A DNA stretch of 50,306 nucleotides from contig DALYDD010000001.1 in NCBI GenBank assembly GCA_031973395.1, positions 10,894 through 61,199 on the forward strand, written 5' to 3'. The notes under the pieces were generated by a model that had not been told where the DNA came from, did not search any database, and was given only the letters and a program-made list of their open reading frames with translations. The stretch comes from Minisyncoccota bacterium. Lineage in GTDB: Bacteria > Patescibacteriota > Minisyncoccia > Phycocordibacterales > CAIZLB01. Numbering within the stretch: position 1 is the first letter of the stretch; each line of letters opens with the position of its first letter. A program made the translations under genes and the position numbers. This document shows, one piece after another, positions 27,027 to 50,306 of this stretch.

Positions 27027-27100
27027 TGGTTGCGGGGCCAAGAATTGCACTTGGTCCTCAAGGTTATGAGCCTTGCATGCAACTGTTACACCTCCCCGCA
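27027..27100 (-). tRNA. atypical tRNA-Met-like gene (CAU), CCA encoded
   Basis: Acceptor TGCGGGG/CCCCGCA, then A and CCA. Anticodon arm CAAGG-CTCATAA-CCTTG, T arm CCAAG-TGCAATT-CTTGG. The D loop AACAGTT lacks GG. Confidence 0.6.
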
Positions 27101-43610: not shown

Positions 43611-44735
43611 TTAACGCTTCTCCTGTAACTTGCGCAATGCAATACCGATCGATACATCGAATTCAAGTCCAGTTGCTTTGAGCACGTCTTCCATGAATGC
43701 AGGTGTTTCTACTTTTGCAAACGGTGCACCAAGCTCGACTTCAGTTTGAAAATTCGCTCGGGCTAATTCAAATACCCCTTTCATGGCACAGCCTCCACCA
43801 ACCAAAATCACTTTTCCTAGTGGCTTATTGAATTTGCGCTGATAGCTCAGTATCACACTATTGGCCTCAGAGAAAATGAAGTCGAGGGTAAGCGAGATAA
43901 CTTCAAATACATTTTTTTCATCTGCCACAACTCCGGTACCTAGGTTGCGCTTGATATGTTCGGCACGATCAAAGGTCACATTCATGCCGCGCATAATACT
44001 CATGGTCACATCCTGTGATCCTTTATTAATGATATGCGAGTAGCGCACAACACCTCTCTCTAATATATAAATTTTGGTAGAAGAAGCCCCCAGGTCGAAA
44101 ATCATAACTGGTGCAGTCTCTCCTGTTAGCAATGCGCGTGTACCACTAAACATTTCAATCTCAAAGAAACCAGTATTTATGCCAGCTTGCTGCACAATCG
44201 AACTATATGTATTTAAAACTTCATTATGAATTGAAACGACGAGGACCTGCGTTTTTGGAATAGCGGTTGTGCGATTACCATCCTCATCGGCAGGTTCGAT
44301 AAAATCCAAATCACCGGCCGCTTCGCGAGGGATCACCCACCAGTCGAGAGTTACTTCGCTAATTGGTACGGGAATATATTTTCGAGCCTCAAGTGGAATC
44401 ATTTCTTTCAGTTGTTTTTCATCGAGCATGGGCAATTCCATGAGGGTCACGAGACTTGATTTAAAAGGAATAGATACACCGGCATTGAGGGTTGTAACAT
44501 TGGCTTCTTTGAGCAAATCCTTGATAGCTTCGGCGATCTTGTCAGCTGGCAGACTGGTTACCTGTCCAACAGAAAGACCGCCATATGGACCAAGAGCAAT
44601 TTCACCGTATGTTTCGAGGATTGCCCTCCCTTTTCGCTTGCGCAATTGAACAACCTTTATTGACGAAGAGCCGATATCGATGCCGATTACGCTTTCTTCA
44701 TTTTTTTTAAAAATATTTTGTAAAAAATTCACCAT
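43611..44735 (-). CDS. pilM: PilM (actin-like ATPase of the pilus alignment complex)
   Basis: IGIDIGSSSIKVV and DLGASSTK phosphate-binding motifs of the actin/FtsA fold. 374 aa. Confidence 0.88.
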   Translation of the reverse strand: MVNFLQNIFKKNEESVIGIDIGSSSIKVVQLRKRKGRAILETYGEIALGPYGGLSVGQVTSLPADKIAEAIKDLLKEANVTTLNAGVSIPFKSSLVTLMELPMLDEKQLKEMIPLEARKYIPVPISEVTLDWWVIPREAAGDLDFIEPADEDGNRTTAIPKTQVLVVSIHNEVLNTYSSIVQQAGINTGFFEIEMFSGTRALLTGETAPVMIFDLGASSTKIYILERGVVRYSHIINKGSQDVTMSIMRGMNVTFDRAEHIKRNLGTGVVADEKNVFEVISLTLDFIFSEANSVILSYQRKFNKPLGKVILVGGGCAMKGVFELARANFQTEVELGAPFAKVETPAFMEDVLKATGLEFDVSIGIALRKLQEKR

Positions 44736-46194: not shown

Positions 46195-46971
46195 TTAAAA
46201 CTTCAAAAATTCCACTGAATCCAAAACTTCTTCTGCGATATCATTCAATTTCCCCTCTTGTGCTTTGAATGTCCTAAACGCAAACCAATATTCTGTCCGC
46301 CCCACCCTCGTCGAATACCAAATTGTCACCACCGGCTTATCACTCAATGCTCCGAATTGTTCATCCAACATATACCAATAATAATTATTGCCATTCATTG
46401 ATGCATCGCCATAATTGCGAAGCACAGCACTCGTGAGACCAATTGGCTTTCCTAAATCCAAATAGACACGGCTTGAAAAATATTCAACCGCCTGCCCTTT
46501 TGTATGAAAATCTTTGTAAATTGTTGCCGCTTGGCGCGTACATTCCGGTTTGGCAGTTCTGGCCATGGTATTGACGATGACATCTTTGTATACAAATGAG
46601 GCAACTTCATCACTCAGGACTTCTTTGGTATATTGCCAATCCACTATCGGTTCTTCGAGTGCAATATTCAATTTATAAAATTCGCTCTTGATCGTGCTCG
46701 ATTGCCCATCGCGCATCAATCTCGCATCCCTCACATGTGGCTCAAGACTTTGAAGTGGAGCCGTGCAATCTATAGCTTTAGTATCCTTTTCGGCGAGAGC
46801 TTCTACCATGCCACGACGACCGGATGTATTAGAGAGATTTGCCGTAGTTACAGAATCCAATGAAAAAGGATTGGCAATGCGTCCAACAGCGACATATGCC
46901 AAGGGCACCATGACGAAGAGGATGAGAGCGATACCAACCAGTACCCAAATGACGGGCCAGACTTTTTTCAT
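46195..46971 (-). CDS. membrane-anchored hypothetical protein
   Basis: ATG 46971 gives MKKVWPVIWVLVGIALILFVMV as a signal anchor. Confidence 0.6.
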   Translation of the reverse strand: MKKVWPVIWVLVGIALILFVMVPLAYVAVGRIANPFSLDSVTTANLSNTSGRRGMVEALAEKDTKAIDCTAPLQSLEPHVRDARLMRDGQSSTIKSEFYKLNIALEEPIVDWQYTKEVLSDEVASFVYKDVIVNTMARTAKPECTRQAATIYKDFHTKGQAVEYFSSRVYLDLGKPIGLTSAVLRNYGDASMNGNNYYWYMLDEQFGALSDKPVVTIWYSTRVGRTEYWFAFRTFKAQEGKLNDIAEEVLDSVEFLKF

Positions 46972-47090
46972 AATATTCCGACGCTGACTATGACAGTGAA
47001 GCGGGAGTATTATTGAACACCCAAATGGGCTTTTTTTCAAGTTGGAGGTTTGGGATAAAATGTGTTAACGTAATACCGAATTAGGCCAAA

Positions 47091-47184
47091 GGAGACGTGT
47101 CAGAGCGGTCGAATGTGCCTCTTTGCTAAAGAGGTAGGCTGCCTTAAAACGGCCTCGAGGGTTCGAATCCCTCCGTCTCCGCCA
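47091..47184 (+). tRNA. tRNA-Ser (GCU), class II, CCA encoded
   Basis: Acceptor GGAGACG/CGTCTCC, anticodon arm CCTCT-TTGCTAA-AGAGG, long variable arm, T arm GAGGG-TTCGAAT-CCCTC. Confidence 0.93.
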
Positions 47185-47185
47185 C

Positions 47186-47225
47186 AAAATAAAATGACCT
47201 GCACTGCTGCAGGTCATTTTATTTT
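47186..47225 (+). terminator. intrinsic terminator after tRNA-Ser
   Basis: GACCTGCA / TGCAGGTC stem extended by A/T pairs, with loop CTGC and a T-run. Confidence 0.8.
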
Positions 47226-47358
47226 GTCTCGAGAGATGGATGTATGAGAAAGGCGGAAGAGATGCCGAGCCAGCAGGCGAGGCTCTGAGCCGGGGTCGCG
47301 AAAATTTCTGAGCGACGGCGAGGAAATTATTCGTGACCGAAGACCGATGTCTCCGCCA
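47222..47358 (+). repeat. GC-rich structured element A1
   Basis: About 135 nt, nearly identical to 49728-49863. Foldable as a three-way junction. Ends in GTCTCCGCCA, identical to the tRNA-Ser 3' end. Confidence 0.7.
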
Positions 47359-47491
47359 AGAAAACAAAGTATCGAGGATGACTCAAGTGCCCCGAAAGGG
47401 GTATTTGATTTACAATAAGAATTATAGTTATAACTAAAAACTGCTTATAAATGATTGTATTCAACAATTTATCGATTTAACTGTGATTTAT

Positions 47492-48301
47492 ATGGGAAGA
47501 AAAAATAAACAAAATATTACAAGGGTCCAACATTTTATACCACGTTTTATTTTGAGAAGATTTACAAATAAACAAGGAAAAACCAACTTCGTTGACAAGC
47601 GATACGGAAGTAAGGGCAAAGCTCCTGACGGGGCTATGTACAAGGATTTTTTCTACGAACATGATGATTTCAACCCAAACGAGATAGAAGACCTTCTTGC
47701 AAGTAGGGAAAATATTTATGCTCCAATTATCGAGAAGATTTTAAGTTACAAAACCTTAACAATAGATGAGCATAAAATATTGATAGAATTTAGGCATACT
47801 ACTTATTATCGATCAAATGAATTTTTTGGATTTCACAGATTCCAAAAGCGTAGAGGTGAAAATGATTGGATGGAAAGATGGGATTGGAAATCAATTAATG
47901 GTCTTTATAGTTCGGACGACTGGGACAAAGATATAAAAAAGTCTCAGCTCAGGGCTATAAAATCTGTCATTAGCGGAGATGATGCCGCTTATTCTGTTAG
48001 CTTGTGGACGCCCATCTGTTTTCTTTTTACCTCGAAAGGAAAAAAGTTTATGGTAAGCGATAGCGGCTCTCTGTGTAGAGGAGATGAAATGAACGGTATT
48101 GTCATCATCGTCCTTTCTCCTTTGCATGCCATAATGTTTCCACGAACGATAAAAGCCGTCGAATTAATGGAGAAACTAAGAGTAAAAAACGATCAATCTA
48201 CTATTATCTTCGAAGACATATCAGATAAAGATGTAGACATAATTAACAAAATGGTTTTGGAAGATTCATTTGAATATTACATAGATCCAAATATTAACTA
48301 G
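47492..48301 (+). CDS. DUF4238-like protein
   Basis: N-terminal HFIPRFILRRF and central FMVSDSGS match my memory of DUF4238 signatures (HYVPxFYLRxF, ..SDNP..). AT-rich: 17/60 G+C in 47521-47580. Confidence 0.6.
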   Translation: MGRKNKQNITRVQHFIPRFILRRFTNKQGKTNFVDKRYGSKGKAPDGAMYKDFFYEHDDFNPNEIEDLLASRENIYAPIIEKILSYKTLTIDEHKILIEFRHTTYYRSNEFFGFHRFQKRRGENDWMERWDWKSINGLYSSDDWDKDIKKSQLRAIKSVISGDDAAYSVSLWTPICFLFTSKGKKFMVSDSGSLCRGDEMNGIVIIVLSPLHAIMFPRTIKAVELMEKLRVKNDQSTIIFEDISDKDVDIINKMVLEDSFEYYIDPNIN

Positions 48302-48636
48302 CGACCCGCATACCACGGCTTCGCGCCAAGAAAAGCGCCAATATATCCTTACAGGACCTCGAAACCCTGGTACTTAACCCACCTGCTCCGCAAAATTTAA
48401 ATACCCCGGCTTCCCTGCCGCGGTATTTAAATTTCTGAGATGAAGGGTGAGAAAGCCGGACGAAGTTGCGCAATGAGCCGGCATCGTGTAACAATTGCGA
48501 CAACACCCTATCGGCGAAGTGCAACAAGGAGGCGGGGTCGACGGGCTTTTTGCGAAGCAAAAAGAACCGGTGACCGAATCCCTCTGTACTAAGTTCAAAA
48601 AGAAGCGCAACACTTTCTTTACTTTCTTTTAAGATC
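48302..48636 (+). repeat. composite GC-rich non-coding block A3, related to A1/A2
   Basis: Starts with a copy of the A 3' end (..CGCGCCAAGAAAA). Contains a 13-bp perfect hairpin (48393-48405/48422-48434), TTTCTGAG, and a GGGGTCG...GTGACCGAA helix as in A1. Confidence 0.6.
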
Positions 48637-49728
48637 ATGGAGCCGAGAAAAATATTTACCCTAGATGCCAGAGATAATGTCCTGCTCGAAGTCATAAGTC
48701 ATGATGTTGATAAGACAGCTATCTACAAATTCATAAACAAAACCTTCGATGAGATGGTTTCCATACTAGAGCAGAAAGGTATTCAGTATGACGAATTGAA
48801 AAATGCCTTGATACCACATCGCGACAAAAGAGAAGTGGCTTTTACCTTTAATCGAGAAAGTATAGATTCAGGCTGGTATGGAAACGATGTCTTCACTCAA
48901 CTCATTCCGCTTTTAGACAAAAGAAGTTCTCATAGCATTTTGAATGGCGATATGTTGGGCTTTGACAAATATAAAGAAAATATAAAAGAAAAGTTTTTAA
49001 ATAATTTGATTATGGCACGAGATTTTGAATATAAAGTCCAACACCAATTCTATTTGGTGTATCTGAATAATCTCACAGATGAAATGGTGAAAAATATCAA
49101 CGATAGATTATTAAACTACACACCCTATGTCGGTTTTCTTGATCTGACACACAACTCTTTTATGAAAACGTATCTTTCTATGACGTTAGCCAATTGCTGT
49201 CTCAAGTTTAAGGATATGGTCATATTTGGCCATGAGCCAGACCGAGATAATACTGAGAACGTAAACATGTCAGGATATCGGTTTGAGGAAAATGACTATG
49301 TTTGCAAAAGCATTAGTGATGATTATTACGGATTATTTCTTTCGTACAAAATAGAACGGCAAACTTTCCCTAATGAAAAAGATACAGGCTTTTCCATAAA
49401 TGCACTTACTGACGATATTCATCAAGTGCCGGATCTCGATATTATCATAGAGGAACCTAAACTGCTCTACTTACTAAAAGAGAAAGAAGCGAATCTTAAG
49501 CGAGCCGAGCTACTCGGACTTACCACAGAAGAATTAGCCAAGTTCATAAAGAGTAAGATTGAGATGAACTATGTCTACAATCTCACATATCTACCAAAAC
49601 ACAATACCTTGAAGTTTAATGTGATGATTGATGTAAAAGGTAAAAAGATGGACACACAAGTCAAGATTGTGGCCTCTTTAGAGTATCAGCCCCAAAGTAG
49701 GCAGTTGAGGCTTATAACCCTGTTTTAA
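48637..49728 (+). CDS. orphan hypothetical protein (363 aa)
   Basis: Long AT-rich ORF with no TM segment and no motif recognised. Starts directly after block A3. Confidence 0.6.
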   Translation: MEPRKIFTLDARDNVLLEVISHDVDKTAIYKFINKTFDEMVSILEQKGIQYDELKNALIPHRDKREVAFTFNRESIDSGWYGNDVFTQLIPLLDKRSSHSILNGDMLGFDKYKENIKEKFLNNLIMARDFEYKVQHQFYLVYLNNLTDEMVKNINDRLLNYTPYVGFLDLTHNSFMKTYLSMTLANCCLKFKDMVIFGHEPDRDNTENVNMSGYRFEENDYVCKSISDDYYGLFLSYKIERQTFPNEKDTGFSINALTDDIHQVPDLDIIIEEPKLLYLLKEKEANLKRAELLGLTTEELAKFIKSKIEMNYVYNLTYLPKHNTLKFNVMIDVKGKKMDTQVKIVASLEYQPQSRQLRLITLF

Positions 49729-49863
49729 TTTTGTCGAGAGATGGATGTATGAGAAAGGCGGAAGAAATGCCGAGCCAGCAGGCGAGGCTCTGAGTCGAGG
49801 TCGCGCAAATTTCTGAGCGATGTCGAAGAAATTATGCTTGACCGAAAACCGAGGTTTCCGCCG
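49728..49863 (+). repeat. GC-rich structured element A2
   Basis: Near-identical to A1. Closing helix GGCGGAA (49757-49763) / TTCCGCC (49856-49862) is perfect. Confidence 0.7.
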
Positions 49864-50235: not shown

Positions 50236-50306
50236 GGCGGGTTGGCAGAGTAGTCGAATGCACCAAGCTTATACCTTGGAAGACTTTTACTGGGTCTCGC
50301 AGGTGC
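50236..50306 (+). tRNA. class-II tRNA-like gene, truncated by the window end; anticodon loop reads UAU
   Basis: GGCGGGT-TG-GCAGAGTAGTCGAATGC-A-CCAAG-CTTATAC-CTTGG, a long variable arm AAGACTTTTACTGGGTCTC, then GCAGG-TGC.. The body resembles the tRNA-Ser at 47091. Confidence 0.45.

Follow-up and report, generated by a model that had tools for sequence, protein, structure and literature searches.

What are the GC-rich repeats near the 3' end of a 50,306-nucleotide (nt) stretch of DNA from a Minisyncoccota bacterium (assembly GCA_031973395.1, contig DALYDD010000001.1; this whole stretch is called the window below), and what is their relation to the transfer RNA (tRNA) gene in front of them? Three copies, A1 (47224-47357), A3 (48451-48578), and A2 (49729-49862), share the core of a family of folded elements of about 95 bases that is apparently undescribed, full-text searches of the literature having turned up no account of it. 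Members of this family usually stand behind tRNA and transfer-messenger RNA (tmRNA) genes, between an inverted and a direct copy of the end of the neighboring gene. We tentatively read A1, A3, and A2 as the conserved cis-acting folded ends of small integrase-less insertion units piled up behind tRNA-Ser(GCT), a reading to which we would give slightly less than an even chance.

A1 and A2 are indeed the direct repeats that the original prediction, made from the window alone, had taken them to be: they are 90% identical over 129-134 nt without a gap (blastn E = 2e-42), and comparison of the window with itself found no other full copies besides these two. GC content is 56% in A1 and 53% in A2, against 42% in the window and 35-36% in the two genes between them. 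Folding of A1 stands out clearly from shuffled controls (z = -4.4), that of A2 less clearly (z = -2.3). The further copy that had been suspected, A3, is a diverged member recognized by R1, a covariance model of the family (26-31 bits, E about 1e-5); the same model gives A1 101.6-103 bits (E about 1e-22) and A2 92.3 bits. The belief that A1 and A2 fold the same way did not hold: measured against the family model, A1 has no broken pair and A2 about seven, and none of the differences between the two is compensatory, for which reason A2 is a decaying copy of A1. The open reading frames that cross these blocks antisense (47065-47367 and 48294-48695, both on the minus strand) had rightly been called artefacts, and the frame at 48374-48613 (minus strand) is another. 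Those of 79-133 amino acids over A1 and A3 are by-products of GC-rich structured DNA, and the spurious frames of relatives cluster together solely through their overlap with the element.

Relatives were sought with the 20-nt hairpin GCCGAGCCAGCAGGCGAGGC in one genome per prokaryotic species. Among the 40 loci found, 29 are patescibacterial (Saccharibacteria, Kaiserbacteria, Paceibacterota, and Minisyncoccia); 10 in genomes of 60-75% GC were set aside as chance matches, and a partial match in L023 (Iainarchaeum, an archaeal metagenome-assembled genome) as uninformative (L-numbers are labels of related loci). L042, to which A1 is most closely related, came from a scan of metagenomes. The model R1 was built from 16 copies and has 93 positions and 30 pairs; at E < 0.03, with E-values that are rough, its matches number 41 and come from the window and 31 loci. 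In several genomes a span of 8 kb contains multiple copies: three in L006, two each in L028 and L012, and three in tandem in L021. A covariance-model search and an Rfam scan had both been proposed at the outset. The first brought up numerous homologs with compensatory changes; the second (Rfam 15, at gathering and at permissive thresholds, over the window and eight related loci) gave no match on the element.

The family core consists of two arms, A and B, joined by GG. Arm A is closed by a 3-bp stem that covaries (GCC/GGC, GGC/GCC, AGC/GCU, GAC/GUC), above which follow an internal loop of GGA versus GA, a 3-bp stem, a bulge of 2-3 nt (AU), and a hairpin tip, GCC-GA-GCC / AGCA / GGC-GA-GGC, which had earlier been named P2. 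Arm B, formerly P3 plus P4, carries a conserved G.U pair, a bulged A, tandem G.A, and a GACG-like apical loop; it occurs as type 1, the variant of the window, and as type 2, with CCCGAG...CGAGAGG. The A1 core (47249-47341, plus strand) is intact by model R1 and covariation, with arm A at 47252-47291 (GGC / GGA / AGA / bulge GAU / GCC-GA-GCC, loop AGCA, GGC-GA-GGC / UCU / GA / GCC), the junction GG at 47292-47293, and arm B, with its conserved G.U, A bulge, tandem G.A, and loop GACG, at 47294-47338.

Most of the helices first drawn are real. P2 (GCCGAGCC-AGCA-GGCGAGGC), P3 (GGTCGCGA/TCGTGACC), and P4 (AATTTC/GAAATT) all show compensatory changes, on the evidence of 30-45 relatives; the apparent conservation of P2 is inflated, because all seeds were gathered with one exact 20-mer. 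The exception is the closing helix P1 (GGCGGAA/YTCCGCC), whose GGC (47252-47254) pairs instead with GCC (47289-47291) to close arm A, and it is this latter stem that covaries. A three-way junction closed by P1 does not belong to the family structure, in favor of which a minimum-free-energy fold of A1 that contains P1 was dropped. The outer stem of relatives is formed by other sequence, and in A1, A2, and A3 it is at control level. Box C/D, K-turn, and hammerhead motifs were also considered and rejected, the AUGAGA and CUGA strings being variable across the family.

In the model-fitted alignment, 90.4% of cells are paired, compared with 32-40% when partners are slid by 1-3 columns; changes on both sides occur in 27 of the 30 pairs, and the covariation score is 0.39 (at most 0.06 when slid). 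Because a fitted alignment leans towards its model, an unfitted MAFFT alignment of the 16 copies was tested as well, and it behaves similarly (90.3% of cells paired and 32-45% when slid; both-side changes in 16 pairs; covariation score 0.34 versus at most 0.09). RNAalifold independently predicts P2 and all of arm B, with 12 compensated pairs. The AT-rich member in L044 (38% GC) has nearly all of its stems swapped to A-U and keeps GGA/GA, AGCA, GG, and GACG. G.T pairs outnumber A.C pairs 52 to 14, which identifies the tRNA-sense strand as the one that folds. The structure of the core is thus under selection and strand-specific.

In at least 21 loci a tRNA gene precedes the core by 50-100 nt on the same strand, with 12 amino-acid types represented, and in L016 and L002 the core directly follows the tmRNA gene. 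Behind the tRNA there is first a hairpin, then an inverted copy of the tRNA's 3' end, next the two-arm core, and last a direct copy of that end. The direct copy runs from the T-loop (CGAWTCC) through the 3' strands of T-stem and acceptor to the discriminator, is usually exact over 17-23 nt, and in some loci extends 7, 9, or 37 nt into the trailer. The inverted copy covers the same segment over up to 21 nt and ends in ...GGAATCGAA; it is unbroken in L010, L005, and L014, and is split at the acceptor/T-stem junction by a GC hairpin with a CTGC loop in L035, L006, L022, L027, and L034. In L005 it is exactly complementary to the 3' strand and does not reproduce the 5' strand of the tRNA with its G.U. 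Most relatives have an outer stem of 8-21 bp.

Counts over all 46 tRNAs of the window and the related loci (exact matches of at least 10 nt within 300 nt downstream) put these copies far above background. A direct copy of the tRNA's own 3' end lies at about +150 in 22 of 46 (upstream control, 2 of 45), and an inverted copy at about +50 in 19 of 46 (control, 0 of 45). The match need not be to the immediate neighbor or complete: L039 lies beside tRNA-Cys yet has a Trp-like 3' arm, and in L010, L036, L034, and L003 the 3' arm is degenerate though the antisense arm matches the tRNA perfectly.

These copies account for the tRNA likeness at the 3' end of A1. A tRNA-Ser(GCT) gene that had gone unmentioned lies 40 nt upstream (47091-47184, plus strand; ARAGORN, and Rfam RF00005 at 51 bits), and the 3' arms downstream are copied from its 3' end, which extends from T-loop to CCA (about 47164-47184); the A1 3' end GTCTCCGCCA, noted at the outset, is an exact 10-nt copy of it. 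The stretch GGAAGAGATGCCGAGCC, whose likeness to a Ser acceptor and D-arm had been remarked on, belongs to the family as its invariant arm A, which also stands beside Gly, Trp, Arg, Lys, and other tRNAs. The tRNA-like part is the 3' arm alone, a copy of the neighboring tRNA from T-loop to 3' end, and the structured body is not tRNA-derived. That A1 and its fellows are decayed duplicates of tRNA-Ser, as the 3' end and a superficial GCCGAGC likeness to class II D-arms might suggest, or else a chance GC-rich repeat, is therefore barely credible: ARAGORN finds only the tRNA-Ser at 47091-47184, the Rfam tRNA model has no match on A1, A2, or A3 at E <= 10, the same core accompanies all those other tRNAs and tmRNA, and the repeat has an E-value of 2e-42. 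Two related candidates were also rejected. Models of tmRNA and permuted tmRNA (RF00023, RF04321) gave a sub-threshold hit spanning the tRNA 3' end (17.8 bits versus 47, E = 0.99), and a tRNA intron or split tRNA does not agree with an upstream tRNA that is always complete.

Several features look like traces of insertion and turnover. The same isoacceptor may be occupied in one locus and empty in another (Trp, L006 and L031 versus L014; Glu, L005 versus L017; Val, L028 versus L025), and behind the orthologous tRNA-Ser(GCT) the window has a type 1 unit but L044 the AT-rich type 2 unit. The L044 homolog of a window gene encoding a DUF4238 protein (68% identical) starts 43 nt after a tRNA-Ser, behind the leader AGTATCGGAGTTACCTGAGTAC; the same leader follows the A1 3' arm in the window and the 3' arm of the unit in L042. 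To judge from these alignments, L044 would resemble an empty site, and the window and L042 would resemble sites with an insertion of about 175 nt flanked by a duplicated tRNA end. By way of description, this tRNA-Ser of L044 (5870-5957, plus strand; ARAGORN) has the unusual anticodon ACT and is divergent from a normal tRNA-Ser(GCT).

The antisense arms of A1 and A2 are homologous to those of tmRNA-linked copies, and their 3' arms end like tRNA-Ser, which makes the window unit a hybrid. Unrelated cores occupy the same frame of inverted and direct copies, and units stand in tandem in L013, L036, L022, and L021. A terminator-like hairpin with a T-run separates tRNA and core in 13 of 29 loci, the window included, and such a hairpin follows the 3' arm in only seven; the first group would fit an element that supplies a new tRNA end together with a terminator, and fits co-transcription with the tRNA less well. 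Repeats made by tRNA-gene islands measure 15-221 bp, with a mode of 20-25, and run from T-loop to CCA (10.1101/2020.11.02.365908). Given the position and length of the repeats, the varied targets, the patchy occupancy, the tandem units, the hybrid arms, the internal terminator, and the low GC of the cargo, insertion at the DNA level into the T-loop seems to us the best account.

It can be envisioned that a unit, from left to right, would comprise a replacement tRNA 3' end, a hairpin that is often terminator-like, an optional cargo, an inverted copy of the tRNA 3' end, and the two-arm core of about 95 nt. It would enter a tRNA or tmRNA gene at its T-loop, leaving the gene intact, while the displaced original 3' end would remain as the direct repeat to the right of the core. 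Site-specific recombination by a recombinase acting in trans would be the likely route, with the folded single strand as its substrate: the core would fold on the tRNA-sense strand, and in intact copies the inverted and direct copies would pair into a duplex mimicking the double-stranded target site. Units may still be mobile. Folded single strands that present a recombination site as a duplex are familiar from integron attC sites and from the attP hairpin of CTX phage. In the window, A1 would be an intact unit lacking cargo, and A3 and A2 would each close a one-gene cassette.

Might the repeats instead be inert scars, that is, att remnants of deleted integrase-bearing islands or prophages with the core as leftover DNA? 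Direct repeats of the usual kind and the decay of A2 and of several 3' arms are what such a history would leave. It is nevertheless highly improbable, since the core of about 95 nt has been kept in three lineages of Patescibacteria with compensatory changes and conserved loops, and the constant geometry, with the inverted copy near +50 and the direct one near +150, is not one on which random deletions would converge.

A function as RNA deserves more weight, and we regard it as possible if rather doubtful. The element would then be a stable noncoding RNA on a tRNA-like scaffold, its antisense and 3' arms forming an acceptor/T-stem minihelix in which the core replaces the T-loop and a stub hairpin sometimes takes the place of the D and anticodon arms. 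Its ends would be made by RNase P and by the enzymes that mature tRNA 3' ends, CCA would be added, as in tmRNA or mascRNA, and the core would bind a protein; the copies of tRNA ends would stem from local duplication and later homogenization. Such an RNA needs no linked protein. It agrees with the strong covariation, with loop nucleotides conserved across phyla, with a folding strand that is always tRNA sense, and with a 5' arm that is split exactly at the acceptor/T-stem junction in the five loci named above. The 3' arm and trailer equal those of the tRNA, so the same processing would be expected, and the diverged paralogs within one genome (L006) keep matched arms. The difficulties are those of arrangement: a terminator-like hairpin parts tRNA from unit in the 13 loci, A1 among them; the 3' arm can be degenerate beside a perfect antisense arm (L010, L036, L034, and L003); and the outer stem is absent in A1, A2, and A3. 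Identity to 12 tRNAs would have no obvious purpose at the RNA level, and neither unrelated cores in the same frame nor patchy occupancy is expected.

Insertion by an integrase-less unit has difficulties of its own, which keep our preference tentative. No integrase, transposase, or reverse transcriptase recurs beside the elements, the window array has none, and comparison of neighbors over about 30 loci found no protein family that recurs beside the units. Look-ups of sister contigs, which returned only contigs of 1-1.5 kb, yielded neither an excised or circular form nor a strict presence/absence polymorphism within one strain, and a metagenome protein scan with the upstream 258-amino-acid gene found no relatives. 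The core motif has no match in 2.9 million viral contigs, nor do the hairpin and A1 find one by blastn in GenBank phages. The copies in L006 have strongly diverged cores with arms that exactly match their own tRNA, a pattern at least as easily reconciled with functional genes of long residence as with recent insertion. Copies in Kaiserbacteria (L021, L004, and L020) keep the topology with arms that are not tRNA sequence. An ordinary integrase model gives no account of an inverted arm that agrees with 12 different tRNAs for as many as 20-21 nt. Finally, the inverted arm is degenerate in the subfamily of the window and its outer stem is not above chance, so A1 itself may be inactive.

Since neither insertion by a recombinase nor a scaffold RNA explains an inverted arm that matches 12 tRNAs, a further alternative is worth keeping, unlikely as we think it. 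The units could be very small mobile elements of about 170-200 nt, with or without one cargo gene, whose RNA or single-stranded DNA core recognizes tRNA and tmRNA genes by pairing of the inverted copy, or arises from them through template switching. In that case specificity would be encoded in nucleic acid and could be reset for any tRNA, and the perfect 17-21-nt matches to 12 tRNAs would be explained with no linked protein.

Among known systems, islands and prophages that use tyrosine integrases at the T-loop likewise duplicate the tRNA 3' end, leaving a direct repeat that reaches from the T-loop to the end of the tRNA or past it, with the tRNA intact; they also use tmRNA, accumulate in tandem, and carry low-GC cargo like that of the window. 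A direct repeat of the tRNA 3' end does stand at the far boundary, in the family and in the window. The units described here differ in measuring 130-200 nt, or 1.2 kb with one gene, in lacking an integrase, in using at least 12 tRNAs within one family, and in having a conserved structured core and an inverted target copy beside the right-hand repeat.

The nearest mechanistic analogs, judged by layout, would be the integron attC site and the CTX-phage attP hairpin. Like the units described here, integron cassettes are small, with or without a promoterless open reading frame, and line up in one orientation at a fixed entry site with no recombinase inside. Each is closed by a folded and strand-specific site with an inverted-repeat stem; the counterpart in the family would be the outer stem of most relatives, which is at control level in A1, A2, and A3. 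Unlike integrons, the present loci have neither intI nor attI, and the entry site is a tRNA gene. The attC consensus RYYYAAC/GTTRRRY is merely approximated by the family arms ATCGAAC / GTTCGAT, at six of seven positions each, and the center, variable in attC, is here highly conserved and structured. The attP(+) of CTX phage, which integrates as single-stranded DNA through XerCD, has two inverted target copies about 90 nt apart that form a target-mimicking duplex, with an inverted copy, spacer, and direct hybrid copy at one end and the host site restored at the other. The same layout, and layout only, is found here: the 93-nt core lies between the inverted and the direct copy, and the tRNA has remained whole. 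Differences are that no filamentous-phage genes are present, that the target is a tRNA 3' end rather than dif, that the spacer is a conserved two-arm structure, and that our case is made from sequence.

Other comparisons are less close. The tRNA-like domains of tmRNA, mascRNA, and bacterial Y RNA share an acceptor/T-stem-like helix, and the tRNA-identical 3' end could recruit RNase P, RNase Z, and the CCA-adding enzyme. The family differs in having no T-loop or D-loop and no Rfam match, in the loss of the minihelix in the window copies, and in the many copies per genome, each mimicking a different neighboring tRNA. The IS110 bridge RNA and the omega RNA and reRNA of IS200/605 elements are also conserved structured scaffolds flanked by variable target-matching segments. 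Here, however, no recombinase or nuclease is adjacent, the two target-matching segments are fully complementary to each other, and long direct target repeats are present. A look for IS110, IS200-605, and retron genes in the window and among family neighbors found no adjacent recombinase, TnpB/IscB, or reverse transcriptase. An IS200/605-type element was rejected, such elements making no target duplication, as were TIGR-Tas systems, which have 36-nt tigRNAs with non-overlapping 9-nt spacers and a Tas gene.

How, then, is the window array put together? On the plus strand, the tRNA-Ser gene is followed by a perfect 20-bp palindrome with loop CTGC and then a T-run (47184-47227), an inverted repeat of terminator-like form that has homologs with compensated stems after tRNA or tmRNA in L042, L002, L016, and L018. 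Next come the A1 leader and degenerate antisense arm GAGAGATGGATGTATGAGAAAG (47228-47251), which no longer pairs with the 3' arm and is homologous to that of the tmRNA-linked L002 and L016. Beyond the core, the 3' arm CGAAGACCGATGTCTCCGCCA (47338-47358) repeats the 3' end of tRNA-Ser in part, in direct orientation and with agreement at 15 of 21 positions. A cassette leader recognized by alignment (47359-47412), which includes AGTATCGAGGATGACTCAAGTGCCC and a small hairpin (47387-47412), is homologous to sequence after the tRNA-Ser 3' end in L044 and after the 3' arm in L042.

The first cargo gene (47495-48301, plus strand) encodes a DUF4238 protein (Pfam PF14022, E = 3.7e-26; GC 35%) with homologs in Patescibacteria. 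It is followed by a hairpin detected as a self-match (48393-48434, plus strand, with arms at 48393-48410 and 48417-48434) and by the diverged A3 core (48451-48578, plus strand; R1 30.9 bits in one search and 26.4 bits, E = 6e-6, in another). A3 has kept arm B (GGGGUCGACGG...CCGGUGACC) and, in arm A, the closing GCC/GGC and the GGA/GA loop; the inner part of arm A is replaced by a longer insert. Its 3' arm (48575-48589, plus strand) begins with CGAATCCCTC, an exact 10-nt copy of the T-loop/T-stem part of tRNA-Ser, and then diverges. The second cargo gene (48637-49728, plus strand; GC 36%) encodes a 363-amino-acid protein with no family match. The decaying A2 follows with leader and core (49734-49846, core 49754-49846, plus strand; R1 92.3 bits) and the 3' arm CGAAAACCGAGGTTTCCGCCG (49843-49863, plus strand), a degenerate copy of the tRNA-Ser 3' end. 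Each window unit thus ends with the family core and then a remnant of the tRNA-Ser 3' end, A3 closing the DUF4238 cassette and A2 the 363-amino-acid one, both of low GC. The two cargo genes are the sole genes of the units, and no integrase gene is among them.

This arrangement, with each cassette bounded by a copy, invites the idea that the RNA is dedicated to its neighbors as a guide, an antitoxin, or a decoy for the DUF4238 or 363-amino-acid protein, the more so as the DUF4238 homolog of L044 also lies beside tRNA-Ser genes and one family member. We consider it very unlikely. About 30 other loci have no such neighbor and no recurrent protein family, DUF4238 homologs in L046 and L047 have no element nearby, PADLOC has no match for either protein, and A2 is decaying. 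A type III toxin-antitoxin or other defense RNA was rejected on like grounds, there being no constant partner gene and most members lacking these neighbors. Of the functions offered in the original prediction, then, a structured, conserved element connected with tRNA stands, with "recombination site or pseudo-tRNA scar" coming closest; a cassette guide, antitoxin, or sensor does not, the element being alone in about 30 genomes.

Some neighboring features should be recorded. Neither PADLOC nor NCBIfam has a match for the two cargo proteins or for the upstream gene (46195-47040, minus strand), and Pfam has none for the latter. After A2 the array passes through an AT-rich spacer into a partial class II tRNA (50236-50306, plus strand), cut by the window end, with 22.6 bits in Rfam and the anticodon loop CTTATAC. 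The hairpin after A1 (47387-47412) forms with 43764-43789 a 26-nt inverted repeat, 88% complementary, which links it to the 3' part of a 374-amino-acid open reading frame (43611-44735, minus strand). Rfam finds a fourth tRNA in the window (27030-27100, minus strand; 50.5 bits) that is not reported by ARAGORN, and none of the three tRNAs at 25.7-27.1 kb has a downstream unit. The DUF4238 homolog of L046 and L047 (62% identity) sits in a block that resembles a prophage and also encodes an S24 repressor, RusA, and a ParB-methylase, with no tRNA nearby; DUF4238 genes thus travel on other vehicles as well.

Further observations concern the make-up of units elsewhere. At least three other two-arm cores lie between inverted and direct copies of tRNA ends (L013, 4766-5060 and 5284-5430; L036, about 3130-3030 on the minus strand), in tandem with the core family studied here; one of them reads TCCCATATTT...AAATGGGAAAC, followed by a GTACTGA hairpin. 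The tandem array of three family members in the Kaiserbacteria locus L021 (5860-6311) has a long 5' hairpin and outer arms of non-tRNA sequence (GCAGTCGC / GCGACTGC), with units 1 and 2 identical over their first 70 nt or so. Mini-hairpins of the form C-GAA-G / GCGAAGC (ACGAAGTG, GCGAAGCG) recur in the spacers between tRNA and core of many loci and are found in the window at 48461-48466 and 48553-48559; CTGC loops on covarying stems recur in such spacers too. Together these may constitute, on the 5' side of the unit, a second conserved domain.

Patescibacteria account for a large share of bacterial diversity and are poorly understood; their genomes are tiny, and few mobile elements or regulatory RNAs have been recognized in them. 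With over 40 members, a covariance model to describe them, and an architecture that is clear, the family offers a testable object, and its target-matching arms point to a possible choice of site encoded in nucleic acid. Its modules will mislead programs that call tRNA-island boundaries or genes, since spurious open reading frames run across them. If the core acts as RNA, it may represent a new and abundant class that borrows tRNA processing. If it is a recombination site, Patescibacteria may possess a cassette system that would explain how small accessory genes such as those for DUF4238 proteins are gained without island integrases.

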